Positions 1-49,435 of a stretch of DNA of 64,000 nt are shown one piece after another. Positions within the stretch are counted from its first letter, which is position 1. Each line of letters starts with the position of its first letter. The notes below the pieces were generated by a model. It saw only the letters and a list, made by a program, of their open reading frames with translations. It did no database searches and had not been told where the DNA came from. The position numbers were made by a program, and so were the translations under genes. The stretch lies in NCBI RefSeq assembly GCF_057098645.1, contig NZ_CM169472.1; one strand, written 5' to 3'.

Positions 1-490
1 CAACGGTTACTTTCCGCAGGGTGAAAGCCGCGACCATCCGATAAAATTCCCGGCGAAGGCGCAGTTTTATCAGAACCTGCAAAATTATTTGGAAACCGAA
101 CTCAAGCGTGAAAATCCGGTGCTGATTATGGGCGATATGAATATCAGTCCTGGCGACCTGGATATTGGCATTGGCGAAGAGAACCGTAAGCGCTGGCTGC
201 GTACCGGAAAATGTTCTTTCCTTCCGGAGGAACGCGAATGGATGGAGAGACTGATGAGCTGGGGATTGGTCGATACCTTCCGCCATGCGAATCCGCAAAC
301 AGCAGATCGTTTCTCATGGTTTGATTACCGCTCAAAAGGTTTTGACGATAACCGCGGTCTGCGCATCGACCTGCTGCTCGCCAGCCAACCGCTGGCAGAA
401 TGTTGCGTAGAAACCGGCATCGACTATGAAATTCGCAGCATGGAAAAACCGTCCGATCACGCCCCCGTCTGGGCGACCTTCCGCCGCTAA
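1..490 (+). CDS. xthA: Exodeoxyribonuclease III, C-terminal part (5' end lies outside the window)
   Basis: Open frame from the window edge to the stop at 488-490; translation ends ...[12 protein letters not shown], typical exonuclease III C-terminus; conserved position upstream of ydjX. Confidence 0.9.
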
Positions 491-656
491 TTTAGCAGCT
501 CTCCTGGCTCAAACTGGGCCAGGAGAATTAACCTTGAGAAAAATCAACAAACTGTCAGTAATGATTTGTTGCCTGCCGCCCTTTGTTATACCGTCACTGC
601 ATTTTTAGTTGTCTGACCACTTCTCTATTATCAAGTTTGATATAGGAAACTCCACG

Positions 657-1367
657 ATGAACGCTGAGCGTAAATTTCTTTTTGCCTGTCTTATTTTTGC
701 GCTGGTCATTTACGCTATCCACGCTTTCGGTTTATTCGATCTGCTCACCGATTTACCCCACTTACAGACACTCATTCGCCAGAGCGGATTGTTCGGTTAT
801 AGCCTCTATATTCTGTTATTCATCATTGCCACCCTCTTTCTGTTACCAGGAAGCATATTGGTGATCGCGGGAGGAATAGTTTTTGGCCCGTTCTTAGGGA
901 CACTACTCTCATTAATTGCCGCCACGCTGGCCTCCTCGTGCTCATTCCTGCTGGCGCGCTGGATGGGACGTGATTTACTGCTGAAATACGTTGGCCATAG
1001 CCATACCTTCCAGGCCATTGAAAAAGGCATTGCGCGTAACGGCATCGATTTTCTTATTCTGACCCGCTTAATTCCGCTGTTTCCGTACAATATTCAAAAT
1101 TACGCTTACGGATTAACCGCTATTGCTTTCTGGCCCTATACCCTTATTTCGGCATTAACCACCCTGCCCGGAATCGTAATTTATACCGTGATGGCAAGCG
1201 ATCTCGCCAATGAAGGCATTACGCTGCGCTTTATTTTACAACTCTGTCTGGCGGGCCTGGCGCTGTTTATTCTCGTCCAGCTCGCCAAACTCTACGCCCG
1301 ACACAAACATGTGGATCTGTCTGCTTCGCGCCGCAACCCACTTACTCACCCAAAAAATGAAGGATAG
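657..1367 (+). CDS. ydjX: DedA/TVP38-family inner membrane protein
   Basis: ORF 609-1367; start at internal ATG (MNAERKFLF...) gives 236 aa; multi-TM hydrophobic profile; synteny. Confidence 0.85.
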   Translation: MNAERKFLFACLIFALVIYAIHAFGLFDLLTDLPHLQTLIRQSGLFGYSLYILLFIIATLFLLPGSILVIAGGIVFGPFLGTLLSLIAATLASSCSFLLARWMGRDLLLKYVGHSHTFQAIEKGIARNGIDFLILTRLIPLFPYNIQNYAYGLTAIAFWPYTLISALTTLPGIVIYTVMASDLANEGITLRFILQLCLAGLALFILVQLAKLYARHKHVDLSASRRNPLTHPKNEG

Positions 1368-1371
1368 AACG

Positions 1372-2049
1372 ATGTTGCAACATTATTCAGTGTCATGGAA
1401 AAAAGGACTGACTGCACTCTGCTTACTGGCTGTTGCTGGGCTTAGCGGCTGCGATCAAAAAGAGAATACGGCGGCAAAAGTGGAATACGACGGACTTTCG
1501 AACAGCCAACCGCTGCGCGTCGATGCCAATAACCATACGGTAACCATGCTGGTGCAAATTAATGGTCGTTTCCTCACCGACGACACTCGTCACGGTATTG
1601 TGTTTAAAGATGGCTCCAACGGACATAAATCGCTGTTTATGGGTTATGCGACCCCGAAAGCATTTTATGAAGCCCTGAAAGAGGCAGGTGGTACGCCGGG
1701 CGAAAACATGACGATGGATAATAAAGAAACGACTCATGTCACGGGCAGCAAACTGGATATTTCGGTCAACTGGCAAGGGGCGGCAAAAGCGTATTCCTTT
1801 GATGAAGTGATTGTTGACAGTAATGGCAAGAAACTGGACATGCGCTTTGGCGGTAATTTAACGGCAGCAGAAGAGAAGAAAACGGGCTGCCTGGTGTGTC
1901 TGGATAGCTGCCCGGTCGGCATCGTCAGCAATGCAACATACACTTATGGTGCGGTGGAAAAACGCGGCGAAGTGAAATTCAAAGGCAATGCCTCGGTTCT
2001 CCCGGCGGATAACACGCTGGCAACGGTTACCTTTAAAATCACCGAATAA
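1372..2049 (+). CDS. ydjY: Putative lipoprotein YdjY
   Basis: Internal ATG at 1372 of ORF 1210-2049 (MLQHYSVSWKK...), lipobox LSGC, 225 aa; starts 5 nt after the ydjX stop. Confidence 0.8.
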   Translation: MLQHYSVSWKKGLTALCLLAVAGLSGCDQKENTAAKVEYDGLSNSQPLRVDANNHTVTMLVQINGRFLTDDTRHGIVFKDGSNGHKSLFMGYATPKAFYEALKEAGGTPGENMTMDNKETTHVTGSKLDISVNWQGAAKAYSFDEVIVDSNGKKLDMRFGGNLTAAEEKKTGCLVCLDSCPVGIVSNATYTYGAVEKRGEVKFKGNASVLPADNTLATVTFKITE

Positions 2050-2063
2050 AGCCAGGATAAAGG

Positions 2064-2771
2064 ATGATGAAGATACAATCGCGAAAAATCTGGTACTACC
2101 GTATAACCCTCATCATCCTGTTGTTCGCTATGCTGCTGGCATGGGCGCTGCTTCCCGGCGTCCATGAGTTTATCAATCGCAGCGTTGCGGCGTTTGCCGC
2201 CGTGGACCAACAGGGTATAGAACGCATTATTCAGTCTTACGGCGCACTGGCGGCAGTTGTCTCGTTCTTGTTGATGATTTTACAGGCCATTGCTGCACCG
2301 CTACCTGCGTTTTTGATCACCTTTGCCAATGCGTCGCTATTTGGCGCGTTCTGGGGCGGCTTGCTGTCGTGGACCAGTTCGATGGCCGGCGCGGCGCTGT
2401 GCTTTTTTATCGCCAGAGTGATGGGCCGCGAAGTGGTGGAAAAATTAACCGGCAAAACAGTACTTGACAGTATGGACGGCTTTTTCACTCGCTACGGCAA
2501 ACACACCATCCTGGTCTGTCGGTTATTGCCTTTTGTCCCTTTCGATCCAATCAGCTATGCTGCCGGTCTGACTTCAATCCGTTTTCGCTCGTTTTTTATC
2601 GCCACCGGGCTTGGTCAGTTACCGGCGACTATTGTTTATTCCTGGGCGGGCAGCATGTTAACAGGCGGTACCTTCTGGTTTGTCACCGGACTGTTTATTC
2701 TGTTTGCCCTGACCGTGGTGATTTTTATGGCGAAGAAAATATGGCTTGAGCGCCAGAAGAGGAATGCCTGA
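2064..2771 (+). CDS. ydjZ: DedA/TVP38-family inner membrane protein, paralog of ydjX
   Basis: 235-aa ORF with multi-TM profile; stop overlaps the ynjA start (TGATG). Confidence 0.85.
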   Translation: MMKIQSRKIWYYRITLIILLFAMLLAWALLPGVHEFINRSVAAFAAVDQQGIERIIQSYGALAAVVSFLLMILQAIAAPLPAFLITFANASLFGAFWGGLLSWTSSMAGAALCFFIARVMGREVVEKLTGKTVLDSMDGFFTRYGKHTILVCRLLPFVPFDPISYAAGLTSIRFRSFFIATGLGQLPATIVYSWAGSMLTGGTFWFVTGLFILFALTVVIFMAKKIWLERQKRNA

Positions 2772-3319
2772 TGGGTTTACCACCGCTTAGCAAAATTCCT
2801 TTCATTTTACGTCCGCAGGCGTGGCTGCATCGTCGCCATTACGGCGAGGTGCTAAGCCCCATTCGCTGGTGGGGGCGGATCCCGTTTATCTTTTATCTGG
2901 TGTCGATGTTTGTTGGCTGGATGGAGCGCAAACGCTCACCGCTCGATCCGGTAGTACGATCGCTTGTCAGCGCGCGCATTGCGCAAATGTGCCTGTGTGA
3001 GTTTTGTGTGGATATCACCAGTATGAAAGTCGCCGAGCGCACCGGCAGCAGCGATAAACTGCTGGCAGTGGCTGACTGGCGACAAAGCCCGCTCTTCAGC
3101 GATGAAGAACGGCTGGCGCTGGAGTACGCCGAAGCCGCAAGCGTCACGCCGCCAACGGTCGATGATGCCCTGCGCACCCGACTGGCTGCGCATTTTGACG
3201 CCCAGGCGCTCACCGAACTGACGGCATTGATCGGCCTGCAAAATCTGTCGGCTCGTTTTAATTCTGCCATGGACATTCCCGCTCAGGGGCTGTGCCGTAT
3301 TCCGGAAAAACGTTCTTAA
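2771..3319 (+). CDS. ynjA: Carboxymuconolactone decarboxylase / AhpD-like family protein
   Basis: 182-aa ORF; translationally coupled to ydjZ; synteny. Confidence 0.8.
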   Translation: MGLPPLSKIPFILRPQAWLHRRHYGEVLSPIRWWGRIPFIFYLVSMFVGWMERKRSPLDPVVRSLVSARIAQMCLCEFCVDITSMKVAERTGSSDKLLAVADWRQSPLFSDEERLALEYAEAASVTPPTVDDALRTRLAAHFDAQALTELTALIGLQNLSARFNSAMDIPAQGLCRIPEKRS

Positions 3320-3328
3320 GGAGAGATG

Positions 3329-4495
3329 ATGCGCCATTGTGGGTGGTTGCTGGGATTGTTATCGCTGTTTTCTCTGGCAACACATGCCAGTGACTGGCAA
3401 GAAATTAAAAATGAGGCCAAAGGGCAAACTGTCTGGTTTAACGCCTGGGGCGGCGATACCGCAATTAACCGCTATCTCGACTGGGTTAGCGGCGAGATGA
3501 AAACCCATTACGCTATAAACCTGAAGATTGTTCGTCTGGCGGATGCCGCAGACGCGGTGAAGCGCATTCAGACCGAAGCCGCAGCCGGACGTAAAACGGG
3601 CGGCTCGGTGGATCTGCTCTGGGTGAACGGCGAAAACTTCCGCACCTTAAAAGAGGCCAATTTATTACAAACGGGCTGGGCGGAGACTCTGCCCAACTGG
3701 CGCTATGTCGACACACAGCTGCCGGTGCGGGAAGATTTTTCAGTGCCGACACAAGGTGCGGAATCGCCCTGGGGCGGCGCACAACTGACGTTTATCGCCC
3801 GCCGCGATGTTACGCCACAGCCACCACAAACGCCGCAAGCCTTACTGGAGTTTGCTAAAGCCAATCCCGGCACGGTTACCTATCCGCGCCCACCGGACTT
3901 TACCGGCACGGCGTTTCTTGAACAGTTGCTGATTATGCTGGCGCCCGATCCCGCCGCATTAAAAGAAGCGTCGGACGATGCGACTTTCGCCCGTGTCACT
4001 GCTCCCTTGTGGCAATATCTTGATGCGCTGCATCCGTATTTGTGGCGCGAAGGAAAGGATTTCCCGCCTTCGCCCGCGCGGATGGATGCTCTGCTGAAAG
4101 CCGGCACATTGCGCCTGTCGCTGACCTTTAACCCCGCGCATGCGCAGCAAAAAATCGCCAGCGGCGATTTGCCTGCAAGCAGTTACAGTTTTGGCTTTCG
4201 CGAGGGGATGATTGGCAACGTGCATTTCGTCACCATTCCTGCCAACGCGAATGCCAGTGCTGCGGCGAAGGTAGTTGCCAATTTCTTGCTCTCACCCGAT
4301 GCGCAATTGCGTAAAGCAGATCCCGCTGTCTGGGGCGATCCTTCTGTTCTCGATCCGCAAAAACTGCCTGATGGGCAGCGCGAAACATTGCAATCAAGAA
4401 TGCCGCAAGATCTGCCGCCGGTACTGGCTGAACCGCACGCAGGTTGGGTAAATGCGCTGGAACAAGAATGGCTACACCGTTACGGTACGCATTAA
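3329..4495 (+). CDS. ynjB: ABC transporter periplasmic substrate-binding protein
   Basis: 388/389-aa ORF with N-terminal signal peptide (LLGLLSLFSLATHA); followed by permease and ATPase genes. Confidence 0.8.
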   Translation: MRHCGWLLGLLSLFSLATHASDWQEIKNEAKGQTVWFNAWGGDTAINRYLDWVSGEMKTHYAINLKIVRLADAADAVKRIQTEAAAGRKTGGSVDLLWVNGENFRTLKEANLLQTGWAETLPNWRYVDTQLPVREDFSVPTQGAESPWGGAQLTFIARRDVTPQPPQTPQALLEFAKANPGTVTYPRPPDFTGTAFLEQLLIMLAPDPAALKEASDDATFARVTAPLWQYLDALHPYLWREGKDFPPSPARMDALLKAGTLRLSLTFNPAHAQQKIASGDLPASSYSFGFREGMIGNVHFVTIPANANASAAAKVVANFLLSPDAQLRKADPAVWGDPSVLDPQKLPDGQRETLQSRMPQDLPPVLAEPHAGWVNALEQEWLHRYGTH

Positions 4496-6003
4496 TCTTT
4501 TTGCTGTGGGCGATGGTGGCGGTGATTTATGCACCGCTGATCCCGGCAGCTCTCACGCTGATATCGCCTGCTTTGTCGTTGACACACTGGCAGGCGTTAT
4601 TTGCCGATCCACAGTTACCGCAGGCATTACTGGCAACGCTGGTGTCGACAACCATCGCGGCGGTCGGGGCGTTGTTGATTGCCCTGCTGGTGATTGTGGC
4701 GCTGTGGCCTGGGCCGAAATGGCAGCGTATGTGCACCCGTCTGCCGTGGCTGCTCGCCATTCCCCATGTGGCTTTTGCCACCAGCGCCCTTCTGCTCTTT
4801 GCTGACGGAGGGCTGCTTTATGACTATTTCCCGTATTTCACTCCGCCAATGGACAAATTGGGTATTGGGCTGGGCTTCACGCTGGCGGTGAAAGAAAGCG
4901 CATTTCTGCTGTGGATCTTAGCAGCGGTATTGAGTGAAAAACGGCTTTTACAGCAAGTCATCGTGCTGGATTCGCTGGGCTACAGCCGCTGGCAATGCCT
5001 GAACTGGCTGCTGTTGCCCTCCGTCGCGCCTGCGCTGGCAATGGCGATGCTGGCGATTGTTGCCTGGTCGCTGTCGGTCGTGGATGTGGCGATTATTCTT
5101 GGGCCAGGTAATCCACCGACGCTGGCAGTAATTAGCTGGCAGTGGTTAACTCAGGGCGACGCCAATCAACAAACGAAAGGCGCACTCGCCAGCCTGCTGC
5201 TGATGTTGTTACTCGCCGCCTACGTTTTGCTGGGCTATCTGCTATGGTGTACCTGGCGGCGTACTATTCCCCGCGTAGATGGCGTTCGTAAGCCTGCCAC
5301 GCCTTTATTGCCAGGCATTACGCTGGCGAGTTTTTTACCCTTGACCGGTGTGCTGTGTGTGGTTCTGCTGGCGATCCTCGCGGATCAGTCGACGATCAAT
5401 AGTGAAGCGCTCATCAACAGCCTGACAATGGGGCTGGTGGCGACATTCATCGCTTTGCTCCTGTTACTGCTGTGGCTGGGATGGGGGCCACAGCGTCGCC
5501 AGTTGTGGCTATGGTTGCCCATTTTATTACCGGCACTGCAGCTGGTGGCGGGCCAGTACACGCTGGCGCTATGGCTGAACCTGGATGGAAGCTGGACGGC
5601 GGTGGTCTGGGGGTATCTGCTGTGGGTGATGCCGTGGATGCTGTTTATCCTGCAATCGGCCTGGCAGCGCATTGATTCACGGTTAATTTTGATTGCGCAA
5701 ACACTGGGCTGGTCGCGGGCCAAAATCTTCTTTTACGTGAAATGTCCGCTTATGCTACGCCCTACGCTGATTGCCTTCGCGGTGGGATTTTCAGTCAGTA
5801 TTGCGCAGTATATGCCGACGCTGTGGCTGGGCGCGGGGCGTTTTCCGACGCTCACCACTGAGGCGGTGGCATTAAGCAGCGGCGGCAGCAACGGTATTCT
5901 CGCCGCCCAGGCTTTATGGCAACTGTTGTTACCGCTTATTATTTTTGCCCTGACCGCGTTAGTCGCAAAATGGGTAGGTTATGTCAGACAAGGACTCCGC
6001 TAA
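4468..6003 (+). CDS. ynjC: ABC transporter permease (fused two-domain)
   Basis: 511-aa highly hydrophobic ORF; overlaps ynjB 3' end by 28 nt; stop overlaps ynjD start (TAATG). Confidence 0.8.
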   Translation: MATPLRYALIFLLWAMVAVIYAPLIPAALTLISPALSLTHWQALFADPQLPQALLATLVSTTIAAVGALLIALLVIVALWPGPKWQRMCTRLPWLLAIPHVAFATSALLLFADGGLLYDYFPYFTPPMDKLGIGLGFTLAVKESAFLLWILAAVLSEKRLLQQVIVLDSLGYSRWQCLNWLLLPSVAPALAMAMLAIVAWSLSVVDVAIILGPGNPPTLAVISWQWLTQGDANQQTKGALASLLLMLLLAAYVLLGYLLWCTWRRTIPRVDGVRKPATPLLPGITLASFLPLTGVLCVVLLAILADQSTINSEALINSLTMGLVATFIALLLLLLWLGWGPQRRQLWLWLPILLPALQLVAGQYTLALWLNLDGSWTAVVWGYLLWVMPWMLFILQSAWQRIDSRLILIAQTLGWSRAKIFFYVKCPLMLRPTLIAFAVGFSVSIAQYMPTLWLGAGRFPTLTTEAVALSSGGSNGILAAQALWQLLLPLIIFALTALVAKWVGYVRQGLR

Positions 6004-6656
6004 TGCTCTGCGTGAAAAATGTTTCGCTACGTTTACCAGAAAGTTGCTTGCTGACAAACGTTAACTTTACGGTGGATAAAGGTGACATTGTCACGTTAAT
6101 GGGGCCGTCTGGCTGTGGAAAATCCACTCTGTTTTCATGGATGATTGGTGCACTGGCCGGACAGTTTTCTTGTACAGGTGAGCTATGGCTCAATGAGCAA
6201 CGGATTGACATGCTACCCACCGCACAGCGTCAGATTGGCATTCTTTTTCAGGATGCACTGTTATTTGACCAGTTCAGCGTCGGGCAAAATTTACTGCTGG
6301 CGCTACCGGCGACACTTAAGGGGAATGCCCGACGTAATGCCGTGAATGATGCACTTGAGCGTTCAGGCCTTGACAGAGCTTTCCATCAGGATCCTGCCAC
6401 TTTGTCTGGCGGTCAGCGAGCGCGCGTTGCTCTACTACGCGCCCTTCTCGCCCAGCCAAAAGCGTTGCTACTGGATGAGCCATTCAGCCGTCTTGATGTG
6501 GCTCTGCGCGATAATTTTCGCCAGTGGGTGTTCAGCGAAGTTCGCGAACTGGCGATCCCCGTCGTTCAGGTAACGCACGATCTCCAGGATGTTCCTGCTG
6601 ATAGTTCTGTTCTGGATATGGCTCAGTGGTCAGAAAATTACAACAAACTGCGATAA
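6003..6656 (+). CDS. ynjD: ABC transporter ATP-binding protein
   Basis: Walker A GPSGCGKST and ABC signature LSGGQRARV in translation; 217 aa from internal ATG at 6003. Confidence 0.85.
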   Translation: MLCVKNVSLRLPESCLLTNVNFTVDKGDIVTLMGPSGCGKSTLFSWMIGALAGQFSCTGELWLNEQRIDMLPTAQRQIGILFQDALLFDQFSVGQNLLLALPATLKGNARRNAVNDALERSGLDRAFHQDPATLSGGQRARVALLRALLAQPKALLLDEPFSRLDVALRDNFRQWVFSEVRELAIPVVQVTHDLQDVPADSSVLDMAQWSENYNKLR

Positions 6657-6722
6657 CGCAAAGTTTTTCCCAATGCGTCAGTTCAGAATGGCGCACTCAA
6701 AACTACAATGTCGGGATTTTCG

Positions 6723-8030
6723 ATGAAACGTGTTTCTCAAATGACCGCGCTGGCAATGGCTTTAGGGCTGGCTTGCGCTTCTTCGTGGGCCGCTGAACTG
6801 GCGAAGCCTCTTACACTTGACCAGCTTCAACAACAAAATGGCAAAGCGATAGATACTCGCCCCAGCGCGTTTTATAACGGCTGGCCACAAACCTTAAATG
6901 GCCCTTCTGGTCATGAACCTGCCGCCTTAAACCTCTCTGCTAGCTGGCTTGACAAAATGAGCACCGAACAGCTAAACGCGTGGATCAAGCAACATAACCT
7001 GAAAGCCGATGCCCCGGTGGCGCTATACGGTAATGGCAAAGATGTCGACGCAGTCAAAACGCGACTGCAAAAAGCAGGTTTTACGCATATCTCCATTCTG
7101 AGTGACGCGCTAATCGAACCTTCCCGTCTACAAAAACTGCCGCACTTTGAGCAGCTGGTTTATCCGCAATGGCTGCACGACCTGCAACAAGGTAAAGAGG
7201 TTACGGCGAAACCTGCCGGTGACTGGAAAGTCATTGAAGCGGCCTGGGGCGCTCCTAAGCTTTACCTTATCAGCCATATTCCCGGTGCTGACTACATCGA
7301 TACCAACGAAGTGGAAAGCGAACCGCTGTGGAACAAAGTTTCTGATGAACAACTAAAAGCGATGCTGGCAAAACACGGCATTCGCCATGACACCACGGTC
7401 ATTCTGTACGGGCGTGACGTATACGCTGCAGCGCGTGTGGCGCAGATTATGCTTTATGCCGGCGTGAATGATGTGCGCCTGCTGGATGGCGGCTGGCAAA
7501 CCTGGTCCGACGCGGGACTGCCTGTTGAGCGAGGAACGCCACCGAAAGTGAAAGCGGAACCGGATTTCGGCGTGAAGATCCCGGCACAACCGCAACTAAT
7601 GCTTGATATGGAACAGGCGCGTGGACTGCTGCATCGCCAGGATGCATCGCTGGTGAGCATTCGTTCGTGGCCAGAGTTTATCGGTACGACCAGCGGTTAC
7701 AGCTATATTAAACCAAAAGGTGAAATAGCCGGAGCACGTTGGGGACACGCTGGTAGCGACTCGACGCATATGGAAGATTTCCATAACCCGGATGGCACCA
7801 TGCGTAGCGCCGATGATATTACCGCTATGTGGAAAGCATGGAATATCAAACCAGATCAGCAAGTTTCATTCTACTGCGGCACCGGCTGGCGCGCGTCCGA
7901 AACCTTTATGTACGCACGAGCAATGGGCTGGAATAACGTCTCCGTTTACGACGGCGGCTGGTACGAATGGAGCAGCGATCCAAAAAATCCGGTAGCAACC
8001 GGTGAACGCGGCCCGGACAGCAGCAAATAA
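6723..8030 (+). CDS. ynjE: Periplasmic rhodanese-domain sulfurtransferase (thiosulfate sulfurtransferase family)
   Basis: 435 aa from internal ATG (MKRVSQMTALAMALGLACASSWA signal peptide); tandem rhodanese-like architecture with CGTGWR active-site loop. Confidence 0.85.
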   Translation: MKRVSQMTALAMALGLACASSWAAELAKPLTLDQLQQQNGKAIDTRPSAFYNGWPQTLNGPSGHEPAALNLSASWLDKMSTEQLNAWIKQHNLKADAPVALYGNGKDVDAVKTRLQKAGFTHISILSDALIEPSRLQKLPHFEQLVYPQWLHDLQQGKEVTAKPAGDWKVIEAAWGAPKLYLISHIPGADYIDTNEVESEPLWNKVSDEQLKAMLAKHGIRHDTTVILYGRDVYAAARVAQIMLYAGVNDVRLLDGGWQTWSDAGLPVERGTPPKVKAEPDFGVKIPAQPQLMLDMEQARGLLHRQDASLVSIRSWPEFIGTTSGYSYIKPKGEIAGARWGHAGSDSTHMEDFHNPDGTMRSADDITAMWKAWNIKPDQQVSFYCGTGWRASETFMYARAMGWNNVSVYDGGWYEWSSDPKNPVATGERGPDSSK

Positions 8031-8038
8031 CATTGCAA

Positions 8039-8659
8039 TTACTGACGCTGGAGCGACTTCAGCGTCAGATACCCACTCCACACCCGCGTAAAGGTCGTCA
8101 TCCAGCACAACGCACCAAATACCCACGCAAACCACGGAAAACAGGTCGGAAAGAGGCAACTCAGAACAAACAGCAAAATCGTCTCGCTGCCTTCGGTTAA
8201 CCCGCCCAGATAATAAAACGATTTATGCGCATAACCGGGATTATCAATCTGATGTTTCGCCGCCAGCGCAGCAAAGGCGAGAAAACTGCTGCCCGTACCA
8301 ATAAACGCAAACAGCAGCCAGCCGCCTGCCAGCGCATTTTGCTCCGGTGCAGCAAGAATAAACCCAAAAGGCACCAGCGCGTAAAAAAGAAAATCGAGAG
8401 AAATATCGAGAAAGCCGCCCGCGTCGGTAAGCCCTCTGCGCCGCGCCAGCGCACCGTCCAGACCATCAAGCAGCCTGTTCAACAAAATGACGACTAGCGC
8501 CGCCAGATACCAGCCCAGCGCCAGAAACGGCAGAGCCAGCACGCCGATGGCAAATCCCACTAATGTTAAACCATCTGGCGTAATGCCCGGTTTATCAAGA
8601 ACCCGCACGCACTGATGCAACAACGGTTTAATCCGGGGATGAAGATGGCGGTCTAGCAC
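8039..8659 (-). CDS. ynjF: CDP-alcohol phosphatidyltransferase family membrane protein
   Basis: Minus-strand ORF; GTG at 8657-8659 lies 5 nt downstream of an AGGAG Shine-Dalgarno; 206 aa; motif DGLDGALAR. Confidence 0.8.
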   Translation of the reverse strand: MLDRHLHPRIKPLLHQCVRVLDKPGITPDGLTLVGFAIGVLALPFLALGWYLAALVVILLNRLLDGLDGALARRRGLTDAGGFLDISLDFLFYALVPFGFILAAPEQNALAGGWLLFAFIGTGSSFLAFAALAAKHQIDNPGYAHKSFYYLGGLTEGSETILLFVLSCLFPTCFPWFAWVFGALCWMTTFTRVWSGYLTLKSLQRQ

Positions 8660-8745
8660 AGGCACTCCTTAAATATAAAGCCTTTCTGATTGAGCAACAG
8701 TGCGGATATTATGGCATTTTTCGCTTATCTGCCCGTGTGTAATTT

Positions 8746-9153
8746 ATGAAAATGATTGAAGTTGTTGCCGCCATCATTGAACGTGATGGCAAAATTTTAC
8801 TCGCGCAACGCCCCGCCCAGAGCGATCAGGCGGGATTATGGGAGTTTGCCGGTGGTAAAGTCGAGCCGGATGAAAGTCAGCGGCAGGCGCTGGTGCGTGA
8901 GTTACGCGAAGAACTGGGCATCGAAGCAACTGTGGGTGAGTATGTTACCAGCCATCAGCGAGAAGTTTCGGGGCGAATTATCCATCTTCATGCCTGGCAC
9001 GTACCCGACTTCCACGGGACGTTACAGGCTCATGAACATCAGGCGCTGGTCTGGTGCTCACCTGAAGAGGCGCTGCAATATCCGCTGGCCCCTGCTGACA
9101 TTCCACTATTAGAGGCATTTATAGCTTTACGCGCCGCCAGACCAGCGGATTAG
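8746..9153 (+). CDS. nudG: Nudix hydrolase, (d)CTP pyrophosphohydrolase
   Basis: 135-aa ORF with Nudix box (GGKVEPDESQRQALVRELREELGIE). Confidence 0.85.
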   Translation: MKMIEVVAAIIERDGKILLAQRPAQSDQAGLWEFAGGKVEPDESQRQALVRELREELGIEATVGEYVTSHQREVSGRIIHLHAWHVPDFHGTLQAHEHQALVWCSPEEALQYPLAPADIPLLEAFIALRAARPAD

Positions 9154-9391
9154 TGCTAAGGGTTTTGTCATCACGCTGGCATTGCAGCAGTATTCCTTCG
9201 GCTTTAATTACCGCTCCTTCAGAATAATTTTTATCCTGATAAACGCAGCACTGAGTACAGGGCTGCGCTGACTGCCCGCCTGAACTGAACACTTCTGGCG
9301 GTACGTTAACCTCCACGTCCGGACGATAATGCGGGTTAGCCAGTGCAATTAATGGAAATGCTAATACTACGGCGAACAATGCTCGACTCAC
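9119..9391 (-). CDS. ynjH: Small secreted protein, DUF1496 family
   Basis: 90-aa ORF with N-terminal signal peptide; convergent with nudG and overlapping its 3' end by 35 nt. Confidence 0.75.
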   Translation of the reverse strand: MSRALFAVVLAFPLIALANPHYRPDVEVNVPPEVFSSGGQSAQPCTQCCVYQDKNYSEGAVIKAEGILLQCQRDDKTLSTNPLVWRRVKL

Positions 9392-9626
9392 AGGGAACTC
9401 CTTAACGTTATTGTCTCTGCTACTGATAACGGTAGCCGGGTGGCAAAACTTTAGCGTCTGAGTTATCGCATTTGGTTATGAGATTACTCTCGTTATTAAT
9501 TTGCTTTCCTGGGTCATTTTTTTCTTGCTTACCGTCACATTCTTGATGGTATAGTCGAAAACTGCAAAAGCACATCACATAAACAACATAAGCACAATCG
9601 TATTAATATATAAGGGTTTTATATCT

Positions 9627-47972: not shown

Positions 47973-48227
47973 TTATTTTTCACCAGCCGGATGGTCCCGT
48001 CGCCACAATGCCCATTCATCAATCGTTTCACCGCCCGGTAATTTGCAATTGTTGCTGACCCCTTGCGCTGTCTGCACTGGAATGAGCGTCCCGCCCTTCT
48101 GCTGGCAATAGACCGACGCCGGATTTGCCATACCAATCTGCGGCGGTTTAGGTGCATCTGGCTGAGAAGGGGTTGAACAACCAGCCAGGACCAGCAAGCA
48201 AGGCAGAACAAAACTGATAATTTTCAT
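47973..48227 (-). CDS. yoaF: Putative lipoprotein (DUF333)
   Basis: 84-aa ORF with lipobox LAGC. Confidence 0.75.
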   Translation of the reverse strand: MKIISFVLPCLLVLAGCSTPSQPDAPKPPQIGMANPASVYCQQKGGTLIPVQTAQGVSNNCKLPGGETIDEWALWRRDHPAGEK

Positions 48228-48409
48228 TTATTGATCTCACATATTTATCCAAGCTTAGAGTATCGCGGTATCGTTTTGTTTTGCAGCACTATTTTTATTA
48301 CATTCACTCAAAACATATTACGTCTTGTTTCATCTTTGTTGATGATGTTTTATCATGCCTGCAAAGATTAAATAATCAGCACTTACCCGCCGTATCCTGG
48401 AGTTGTTCC

Positions 48410-49435
48410 GTGTCAGATCAGATTATCGCCCGCGTCTCGCAATCCCTTGCCAAAGAACAGTCACTGGAAAGTCTGGTCCGACAGCTTCTGGAGATGCTGG
48501 AAATGGTCACTGATATGGAATCAACCTACCTGACCAAAGTGGATGTCGAAGCGCGCCTGCAGCATATTATGTTTGCCCGTAACAGCCAGAAAATGCACAT
48601 CCCGGAGAATTTTACCGTCTCGTGGGATTACTCGTTATGCAAACGCGCCATTGATGAAAACTGCTTTTTCAGCGATGAAGTCCCTGACCGTTGGGGCGAC
48701 TGTATTGCGGCACGCAATCTTGGCATCACCACATTTCTGAGCACGCCAATTCACTTACCGGATGGATCATTCTATGGCACGCTTTGCGCCGCCAGCAGTG
48801 AGAAGCGCCAGTGGAGTGAACGCGCGGAACAGGTTTTACAGTTATTCGCCGGACTGATTGCACAATATATTCAAAAAGAGGCACTGGTTGAACAGCTGCG
48901 CGAAGCCAATGCTGCGCTGATTGCGCAATCGTATACCGACTCGTTAACCGGGCTACCGAATCGGCGGGCGATTTTTGAAAATCTGACGACGCTGTTTTCC
49001 CTCGCCCGGCATCTTAACCATAAGATAATGATCGCGTTTATCGATCTGGATAACTTCAAATTAATCAATGATCGTTTTGGTCATAATAGTGGCGATCTGT
49101 TTCTCATTCAGGTTGGCGAGCGCCTTAATACGCTCCAGCAAAATGGCGAAGTTATTGGTCGTCTCGGTGGTGATGAGTTTTTGGTTGTTTCACTAAACAA
49201 CGAGAATGCGGATATTTCGTCGCTGCGAGAACGTATTCAACAGCAAATACGTGGAGAATATCACTTAGGTGATGTTGATTTGTATTATCCCGGTGCCAGT
49301 CTTGGCATAGTAGAAGTCGATCCTGAAACGACCGATGCAGACAGTGCCCTGCATGCTGCCGATATCGCGATGTATCAGGAGAAAAAACACAAACAGAAAA
49401 CACCTTTTGTCGCGCATCCAGCGCTACATTCCTGA
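48410..49435 (+). CDS. dgcP: Diguanylate cyclase with N-terminal GAF-like sensor domain
   Basis: 341 aa from GTG 48410 (after GGAG); intact GGDEF at 49166-49180. Confidence 0.8.
   Translation: MSDQIIARVSQSLAKEQSLESLVRQLLEMLEMVTDMESTYLTKVDVEARLQHIMFARNSQKMHIPENFTVSWDYSLCKRAIDENCFFSDEVPDRWGDCIAARNLGITTFLSTPIHLPDGSFYGTLCAASSEKRQWSERAEQVLQLFAGLIAQYIQKEALVEQLREANAALIAQSYTDSLTGLPNRRAIFENLTTLFSLARHLNHKIMIAFIDLDNFKLINDRFGHNSGDLFLIQVGERLNTLQQNGEVIGRLGGDEFLVVSLNNENADISSLRERIQQQIRGEYHLGDVDLYYPGASLGIVEVDPETTDADSALHAADIAMYQEKKHKQKTPFVAHPALHS

Follow-up and report, generated by a model that had tools for sequence, protein, structure and literature searches.

The closest described counterpart of the locus considered here is that of Escherichia coli K-12, in which the operon ydjXYZ-ynjABCD (b1750-b1756) is followed by ynjE (b1757). 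The literature already covers the seven-gene operon, its activation by FNR, a promoter of ynjE, the crystal structure of YnjE and an anaerobic co-expression module. The same genes, in the same order and with the same junctions, occupy positions 657 to 8030 of a stretch of 64,000 nucleotides (nt) from contig NZ_CM169472.1 (NCBI RefSeq assembly GCF_057098645.1), which is called the window in what follows and carries an O145-type allele with no structural difference. The block is this described operon and the locus is a rediscovery, a fact that the first-pass annotation of the window did not recognise. What the comparison with other bacteria adds is the rarity and conservation of YdjY and its adjacency to VTT-domain genes, its fusions with rhodaneses, the recurrence of HdrD-like, YnjF-YnjBCD, SelD, YedF and Se/S-carrier neighbours, and the inclusion of ynjF, and possibly of selD, in the picture. 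Our preferred reading, tentative enough that it may well prove wrong, is that the block, ynjE and ynjF would encode one FNR-induced relay in the cell envelope for sulfane sulfur and/or selenium; that selenium specifically is the cargo is conceivable and, on balance, unlikely.

Other described systems share parts with this one. The YedE/YedF set (with the DUF3343 Se_S_carrier) and SelD are related to it in two ways: yedEF is co-expressed with the operon, and YedF, Se_S_carrier and SelD adjoin YdjY and VTT genes elsewhere. In contrast to YedE/YeeE, the membrane part here is a VTT/DedA pair and not a YedE/YeeE channel, and an extracytoplasmic rhodanese and a three-cysteine lipoprotein are present in addition; YeeE/YeeD is a related thiosulfate uptake pair. 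The VTT domain of YdjX and YdjZ is also that of the DedA lipid transporters, namely the UptA/DedA flippases of undecaprenyl phosphate (UndP) and the TMEM41B/VMP1 scramblases, although the two proteins are unlike UptA, with model scores of 28-36 bits against 250. The 'arsenosugar biosynthesis' cluster of ArsS, TIGR04282 and TIGR04283 (formerly radical S-adenosylmethionine (rSAM)/selenodomain-associated) is a frequent neighbour of YdjY and VTT genes in Campylobacter, Catonella, Facklamia, Thermincola and Syntrophus; E. coli lacks this cluster, which may provide a supply arm alternative to that of the importer YnjBCD and the putative phosphatidyltransferase YnjF. Phosphatidylcholine synthase and the choline importer (Pcs/ChoXWV) offer a further likeness: there, too, an ATP-binding cassette (ABC) importer is encoded with an enzyme of the CDP-alcohol phosphatidyltransferase family, and Pcs condenses imported choline with CDP-diacylglycerol.

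RefSeq annotation and direct reading place all eight genes of the first-pass annotation on the + strand where it had put them, and Pfam and NCBIfam bear out its family assignments (DedA proteins YdjX and YdjZ, lipoprotein YdjY, AhpD-like YnjA, a complete ABC importer). It had overlooked ynjF, which shares an operon with ynjBCD in other bacteria, and selD, some 6 kb downstream. The genes concerned are the following, with the sources of each assignment in brackets:

xthA, ending at 490 (RefSeq)
ydjX, 657-1367, + strand, inner-membrane protein of the VTT/DedA superfamily, TVP38/TMEM64-type (RefSeq, Pfam)
ydjY, 1372-2049, + strand, lipoprotein with a YdjY domain and invariant C173, C176, C180 and H74 (RefSeq, NCBIfam)
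ydjZ, 2064-2771, + strand, second membrane protein of the VTT/DedA superfamily (RefSeq, Pfam)
ynjA, 2771-3319, + strand, soluble CMD/AhpD-like protein with a CxxC motif (RefSeq, Pfam)
ynjB, 3329-4495, + strand, periplasmic substrate-binding protein of an ABC importer (RefSeq, Pfam, NCBIfam)
ynjC, 4468-6003, + strand, fused double permease of the ABC importer (RefSeq, hydrophobic segments)
ynjD, 6003-6656, + strand, ABC ATPase (RefSeq, Pfam)
ynjE, 6723-8030, + strand, secreted three-domain rhodanese, EanB-like (RefSeq, Pfam, PDB)
ynjF, 8039-8659, - strand, CDP-alcohol phosphatidyltransferase, convergent with ynjE (RefSeq, Pfam)
selD, 14219-15268, - strand, selenophosphate synthetase (RefSeq, translation start)

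YdjY is a rare protein: a pattern scan detected it in 97 of about 100,000 species genomes, and a profile search yielded 395 clusters from 1.84 billion representative proteins; the carriers are nearly all anaerobes or microaerophiles. Between E. coli and Firmicutes, Deltaproteobacteria, Campylobacterota and a spirochaete its identity is 48-76%, and an alignment of 29 sequences has 36 invariant columns, including three cysteines (GCLxCLDSCP) and a histidine. To survey its neighbours, open reading frames (ORFs) were called in 80 YdjY loci and counts within 10 kb were made by genus-level group (45 groups); the counts come from per-family phmmer queries, since fusion proteins led single-linkage clustering to merge too many families. 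In 72 of 79 loci, and in 38 of the 45 groups, a VTT gene is found within this distance, mostly adjacent to YdjY, and a small four-helix membrane protein is often encoded 3' of YdjY or fused to the VTT protein. Seventeen groups have an HdrD-like CCG/Fe-S (Fer4) protein, and 12 ORFs combine it with VTT in a single fusion; a rhodanese is present in 12 groups, those checked carrying signal peptides. The remaining families are YnjB and YnjC (10-11 groups), the TIGR04282 and TIGR04283 transferases (7-8), the ArsS radical-SAM (seleno)protein (7), YnjF (6), YedF (5) and SelD (4). A protein of 451 residues that joins VTT and YdjY (P0242) was set aside as a fusion: it is probably a frameshifted read of E. 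coli ydjX-ydjY, two genes that lie 4 nt apart in different frames.

Two features of these neighbourhoods bear directly on the proposed relay. On the one hand, rhodanese-YdjY fusions, in both domain orders and with lipoprotein signals, occur in at least four representative proteins (P0271, P0274, P0345 and P0269), and the existence of such fusions supports a cysteine relay between YnjE and YdjY; secreted rhodaneses that adjoin YdjY, seen in Campylobacter, in Catonella and in a Peptostreptococcaceae genome, share, moreover, 32-40% identity with YnjE. On the other hand, the selenium genes SelD, YedF and Se_S_carrier co-localise with YdjY in 4-5 genus groups and in locus L093. Two deltaproteobacterial loci have the orders VTT-YdjY-SelD, with gaps of about 60 nt (L027), and SelD-YedF-x-YdjY (L087); in Facklamia the YdjY cluster continues into SelD-YedF-SelB-SelA; the canonical order SelD-TusA-Se_S_carrier-SelB is seen in L096, and SelD is present in the YdjY-bearing Gemella sp. 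GH3. L093 repeats the whole E. coli set: a VTT protein 57% identical to YdjZ, a rhodanese-YdjY fusion, the small membrane protein and a second VTT protein are followed by a YedF-like TusA/DsrE protein and the PF11823 Se_S_carrier, while CCG, YnjF, YnjB, two permease genes and an ATPase are encoded on the other strand.

Two further observations were made in these loci. Beside the YdjY cluster of L078 (4879-5346, + strand), and likewise in L074, L082, L084 and L088, there is a PrdB/GrdB-like ORF with an in-frame TGA, read as ...SPG-TGA-YICHQSVGLIQ; this looks to be a UxxC-type selenoprotein that has escaped annotation. In Sulfurospirillum arcachonense (L002, 8933-11029), YdjY follows two small ferredoxin-like genes within a nif cluster (NifB-like, homocitrate synthase-like, NifT), and no VTT-domain gene is found among the genes called in that locus.

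The expression of the block in E. coli has been addressed by several published studies. A K-12 survey of FNR by chromatin immunoprecipitation sequencing and RNA sequencing (RNA-seq) enters ydjXYZ-ynjABCD as a single operon under direct FNR activation, with a site at -60.5, and gives ynjE a separate entry, with its own FNR-dependent promoter and a site at -41.5. The main promoter, upstream of ydjX, is FNR-activated and ynjE has an additional FNR-dependent promoter. The proposal of a single operon is supported for ydjXYZ-ynjABCD, published as one FNR-activated unit with no room for terminators and a Shine-Dalgarno-like element at each gene, but it does not extend as it stands to ynjE. In the window, an FNR-like palindrome (TTGAGAAAAATCAA, 534-547) that departs by one mismatch from TTGATNNNNATCAA lies upstream of ydjX. 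No FNR site with two or fewer mismatches was found upstream of ynjE; the best matches there, at 6493 and 6613, carry three, so the published site cannot be located by sequence. A promoter-like element (TTCAGA-16-TACAAT) stands at 6682-6709, and transcription from it would start inside the longer version of the ynjE ORF (ATG at 6708). An inverted repeat (CTCCTGGC...GCCAGGAG, 501-525) was also noticed directly 3' of xthA; it lacks a T-run, and the FNR-like palindrome comes next to it.

Independent-component analysis of E. coli transcriptomes has defined an uncharacterised iModulon in which this operon is grouped with ynjE, yedEF and yjiLM; its activity is seen under anaerobic conditions and falls when fnr or arcA is mutated, and the authors propose a link with molybdenum or selenium usage. 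In a transcriptome table, ydjY and ynjE change together with anaerobic genes, over-expression of BaeR induces ynjA and ynjB mildly, and in a ribosome-profiling benchmark the eight genes were inspected together as one operon of low expression.

The junctions within the block are short. Direct reading gives the overlapping stop and start codons TGATG (2769-2773) and TAATG (6001-6005) and an overlap of 28 nt between ynjB and ynjC, all as annotated in the first pass, which had counted 5 nt between ydjX and ydjY where there are 4; the ydjY/ydjZ and ynjA/ynjB gaps are 14 and 9 nt. A Shine-Dalgarno-like element precedes every gene start of the block, the seven operon genes leave no intergenic room for terminators, and a consensus scan for promoters and terminators detected nothing convincing between them. 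Tight or overlapping junctions are ordinary in bacterial operons and unremarkable alone. The conservation of the block within E. coli is not a matter of chance: of the 5426 complete genomes, 5392 have matching sequence over 80% or more of the window's first 10 kb, to which O145 chromosomes are 100% identical.

YnjE had been described in the first pass as a tandem, that is two-domain, rhodanese starting 52 nt downstream of ynjD. Three rhodanese stretches are recognised by Pfam, in agreement with the PDB entries 3IPO and 2WLR and with the title of the structure paper. As for the start, the ATG at 6708 lies 51 nt after ynjD and opens a protein of 440 residues, whereas the RefSeq start, which is also that of the crystallised protein, lies at 6723, leaves a gap of 66 nt, gives 435 residues, has a GGGA Shine-Dalgarno-like element and opens a signal peptide (MKRVSQ...). 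The protein is about 98% identical to 3IPO and has the active-site cysteine C385 in FYCGTGWR (CGTGWR), as predicted for a rhodanese sulfurtransferase. It has been described as periplasmic and as poorly active on thiosulfate or 3-mercaptopyruvate.

YnjE also aligns over its full length with PDB 6KTV and 6H98 ('Sulfurtransferase', E about 1e-88), with Y326 and C385 conserved. These two entries we take to be EanB, an anaerobic ergothioneine synthase; if so, the shared residues are the catalytic cysteine and the tyrosine of SGY(N/S)Y. YnjE is unlike EanB in being secreted, since an enzyme of the EanB type is cytoplasmic and has the methyltransferase EanA as its partner; the annotation of the genes on either side of ynjE shows no methyltransferase of the EanA type. 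The literature on EanB, citing the YnjE structure, suggests that EanB-like enzymes may sulfurise heterocycles. The stop codons of ynjE and ynjF converge with 8 nt between them (8030-8039), and the pair is listed among the 'excludon' overlaps detected by RNA-seq in K-12.

The other periplasmic component, YdjY, matches NCBIfam NF040466 with 146 bits and has the lipobox LSG|C. Its AlphaFold2 model has a mean predicted local distance difference test (pLDDT) score of 90.8 and no close fold in the PDB, and a sequence search of the same database returned only insignificant ferredoxin-like matches (E about 0.3), so that the label '4Fe-4S ferredoxin-type' derives from the string CxxCxxxCP alone. In the membrane, YdjX and YdjZ match the Pfam domain VTT_dom with 91.8 and 87 bits (cutoff 33.9) and have several hydrophobic segments each, which identifies both as members of the VTT/DedA superfamily; against the UptA-type NCBIfam equivalog model they score 27.6 and 35.8 bits, far under its cutoff of 250. 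Published work places them in the TMEM41/TMEM64/Tvp38 branch of the superfamily. In a heterologous assay of UndP transport, only DedA among eight E. coli paralogues gave high-level resistance to MX2401, and YdjX and YdjZ therefore probably act on another substrate than UndP. On the cytoplasmic side, YnjA matches Pfam CMD with 36.6 bits (cutoff 23), has the motif C76-E-F-C79 and no transmembrane segments, and is thus an AhpD/CMD-type protein; its PDB relatives are AhpD-like proteins and Bmp8, and its best NCBIfam match is a YciW-related (seleno)protein model, at 101 bits under a cutoff of 310.

The predicted proteins make YnjBCD a type I ABC importer, with a secreted binding protein, a permease and an ATPase encoded together. 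YnjB matches SBP_bac_8 (54.5 bits, cutoff 27) and NCBIfam PRK11622 (559 bits), and YnjD matches ABC_tran (104 bits, cutoff 25), its best NCBIfam models (PhnT2, sulfate and ThiQ) all being under their cutoffs. YnjC was rightly called a fused permease in the first pass: it has 12 hydrophobic segments, and Firmicutes carry it as two separate permease genes, even if BPD_transp_1 is found in the C-terminal half only, at 23.4 bits under a cutoff of 26.4. The ligand is approached through YnjB. Its AlphaFold2 model (pLDDT 85) is nearest to the PotD/PhnS/FbpA/AfuA group, with a template-modelling (TM) score of about 0.6; the top 50 hits of a Foldseek search belong to that group and to sugar binders, generic neighbours from which no ligand can be called, and a sequence search of the PDB gave no match. 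The invariant residues are mainly W, Y, F, D, E, N and Q, and also G, with one K and no Arg, Ser or Thr, and NCBIfam yields no match to CysP/Sbp, TbpA or ModA. Since these residues and the fold are unlike those of oxyanion binders, they argue against a thiosulfate or sulfate site and suggest that YnjB is not an oxyanion-binding protein.

The association of this importer with YnjF is real and conserved. CDP-alcohol phosphatidyltransferases are defined by the motif D-x2-D-G-x2-A-R-x7,8-G-x3-D-x3-D in a membrane protein, and YnjF (Pfam 43.8 bits, cutoff 22) has it intact at residue 65 (DGLDGALARRRGLTDAGGFLDISLD), as do five Firmicute orthologues; its best models, the archaetidylinositol-phosphate and phosphatidylinositol-phosphate (PIP) synthases, are both under cutoff. 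Next to YdjY and VTT genes, a same-strand operon YnjF-YnjB-YnjC-YnjC-YnjD is found in L026, L051, L057, L066 and L093; in the first four, YnjF immediately precedes YnjB. In the Citrobacter-type loci L090 and L091 (12752-13937, - strand), which have no ydjY, a ynjA-like CMD gene lies upstream of ynjF with an overlap of 8 nt. As Citrobacter couples the CMD gene to ynjF in this way without ydjY, the gene order of E. coli is a lineage-specific rearrangement, and it is proposed that the convergent ynjF belongs to the system. The most economical idea of this arm would be that a head-group alcohol is imported and then joined to a phosphatidyl group. A link of selD to the block in E. coli is possible; the gene lies 6.2 kb beyond ynjE and topB overlaps its 3' end.

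How could these components work together? As one system, they would set a chalcogen free outside the cytoplasmic membrane and take it into the cell. From what is observed, namely which genes are present, how they join, how far they are conserved, what has been published on their regulation and co-expression, and their fusions and neighbourhoods, we infer every biochemical step, as well as the choice between sulfur and selenium, in the following manner. In the periplasm, YnjE (Cys385) and YdjY (Cys173/176/180) would pass persulfide- or perselenide-type species between cysteines. YdjX and YdjZ would perform the membrane step, moving the species as such or a lipid carrier loaded with it. YnjA would act as a cytoplasmic thiol-disulfide reductase, in the place taken in Deltaproteobacteria by the HdrD-like CCG/Fe-S domain fused to VTT, and the product would be handed to YedF-type carriers and, where the cargo is selenium, to SelD. 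YnjBCD would import an organic compound other than an oxyanion and YnjF would couple an alcohol to a phosphatidyl group, this being the least understood arm. A more elaborate version, which we consider improbable, joins the two arms in a lipid-linked chalcogen shuttle: YnjBCD would supply the alcohol and YnjF the carrier lipid, one VTT protein would flip the lipid out, YnjE and YdjY would load it, the second VTT protein would return it, and YnjA or the VTT-fused HdrD-like domain would release HS- or HSe- to YedF-type carriers and SelD.

The envelope relay is in part what the first-pass annotation had anticipated when it suggested a sulfur-containing or redox-active substrate. The fusions, the HdrD-like, YedF, SelD and Se_S_carrier neighbours and the co-expression with yedEF fit that suggestion; a thiosulfate-type substrate does not, because YnjB is unlike a thiosulfate or sulfate binder and YnjE acts poorly on thiosulfate. 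Several points weigh against the relay itself. The selenium link may be indirect, given that selenoproteins encoded in some of the loci (the PrdB-like ORF with its in-frame TGA, ArsS and the C-GCAxxG-C-C '(seleno)protein' families) could alone attract sel genes. The nearness of selD in E. coli could be a coincidence, five unrelated genes (nudG, ynjH, gdhA, the ynjI pseudogene and topB) separating it from the block. A simple chalcogen relay leaves YnjF and YnjBCD unexplained, and the conserved residues of YnjB suggest something other than an oxyanion site. Many loci of Gemella and Finegoldia have only YdjY and VTT, with no chalcogen gene nearby; ArsS with its TIGR04282/TIGR04283 neighbours, in 7-8 genus groups, suggests an arsenosugar-type chemistry; and cited work links YnjE to molybdopterin synthesis, that is, to the cytoplasmic biosynthesis of the molybdenum cofactor.

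Some of these points become arguments for other explanations. The unexplained arm would be accounted for by a membrane-lipid pathway without any chalcogen, in which YnjBCD would import a head-group alcohol, YnjF would condense it with CDP-diacylglycerol, YdjX and YdjZ would flip the lipid and YdjY and YnjE would act on it in the periplasm. The phosphatidyltransferase motif kept in YnjF and its five Firmicute orthologues, the position of YnjF directly upstream of YnjBCD in one operon and the aromatic and acidic invariant residues of YnjB, which suit a cationic or polyol ligand, are all in keeping with it, as are the flippase-like TIGR00374 and the set of kinase, nucleotidyltransferase and GT2 genes found as neighbours in several groups. 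DedA-superfamily proteins are, besides, lipid transporters, the lipid of YdjX and YdjZ probably not being UndP according to the MX2401 assay, in which only DedA gave high-level resistance. The pathway nevertheless does not account for the joining of YdjY with rhodaneses, for reductases of the HdrD-like and CxxC types, for YedF, SelD and Se_S_carrier as neighbours or for the co-expression with yedEF. We know, moreover, of no unusual phospholipid from anaerobic E. coli, and consider this explanation rather unlikely. The chances are slimmer still for the handling of metalloids (arsenic or antimony), in which the cysteine triad of YdjY would bind As(III), and an arsenical or an arsenosugar lipid would be transported by the VTT proteins. 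As(III) is classically bound by three thiolates in a cluster, and 7-8 genus groups have ArsS (TIGR04167) and TIGR04282/TIGR04283 no more than 10 kb from YdjY, often in company with an APH-type kinase and a nucleoside hydrolase; but the E. coli block has none of these three families and no ars genes nearby, it is regulated by FNR and co-expressed with yedEF and not with ars genes, and the ArsS family consists of '(seleno)proteins' whose role in anaerobes is only putative.

The two remaining explanations take the block apart or rename its importer. YnjE could serve the sulfuration of the molybdenum cofactor in the cytoplasm and be a mere neighbour of ydjXYZ-ynjABCD, which would then be an unrelated transporter/DedA operon. 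YnjE is indeed annotated as a molybdopterin synthase sulfurtransferase, its promoter is separate, and genetic-interaction profiles group ynjABCDEFI with suf genes. Its signal peptide and its treatment as a periplasmic protein speak against this, and so do its co-expression with the operon and the recurrence of secreted YnjE-like rhodaneses and rhodanese-YdjY fusions beside VTT genes in unrelated phyla, which leaves the explanation with little probability. Least credible of all is that YnjBCD imports thiamine or thiosulfate, the former after database labels and the latter after the test suggested in the first pass. Relatives are named 'putative thiamine transport system substrate-binding protein' in a Joint Genome Institute (JGI) source, and YnjD reaches 133 bits with the ThiQ model and 136 bits with that of a sulfate ABC ATPase. 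Both values are under the curated cutoffs (245 and 343) and generic for ABC ATPases, however; YnjB matches no model of TbpA, CysP/Sbp or ModA, its nearest folds (PotD/PhnS/FbpA/AfuA) reach a TM score of about 0.6 and its invariant residues lack the Arg, Ser and Thr, and have one Lys only, of the kind expected at an oxyanion site. The labels are accordingly rejected.

A few observations concern other parts of the window. Beyond ynjF, RefSeq annotates nudG, ynjH and gdhA; the 3' ends of nudG (+ strand) and ynjH (- strand) overlap by about 35 nt (9119-9153), and the pair is listed as an excludon. According to the matching O145 record, ynjI (DUF1266, about 11087-12128, - strand) is a frameshifted pseudogene, and leuE (leucine efflux, about 48173-48812, - strand) is frameshifted per its matching record. 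An Rfam scan of positions 1-9700 in E-value mode returned no riboswitch or leader RNA; a permuted transfer-messenger RNA match inside ynjC/ynjD (5872-6037, - strand) is sub-threshold (25.6 bits against 47, E 0.045) and probably due to chance.

The operon is a textbook annotation whose function counts among the gaps that are left in the E. coli genome. The fusions and neighbourhoods agree with the published co-expression of the operon with yedEF, and they narrow an 'unknown transporter' to a short list of testable ideas. No route is known to us by which E. coli would specifically acquire trace selenium for its anaerobic formate dehydrogenases. If the proposed envelope relay for sulfane sulfur and/or selenium is correct, it would provide a substrate class for the TVP38/TMEM64 branch of the DedA superfamily, including its eukaryotic relatives; if its lipid-linked version were true, it would represent a dedicated anaerobic route for the acquisition of selenium (or sulfur) and a new role for DedA/VTT proteins.

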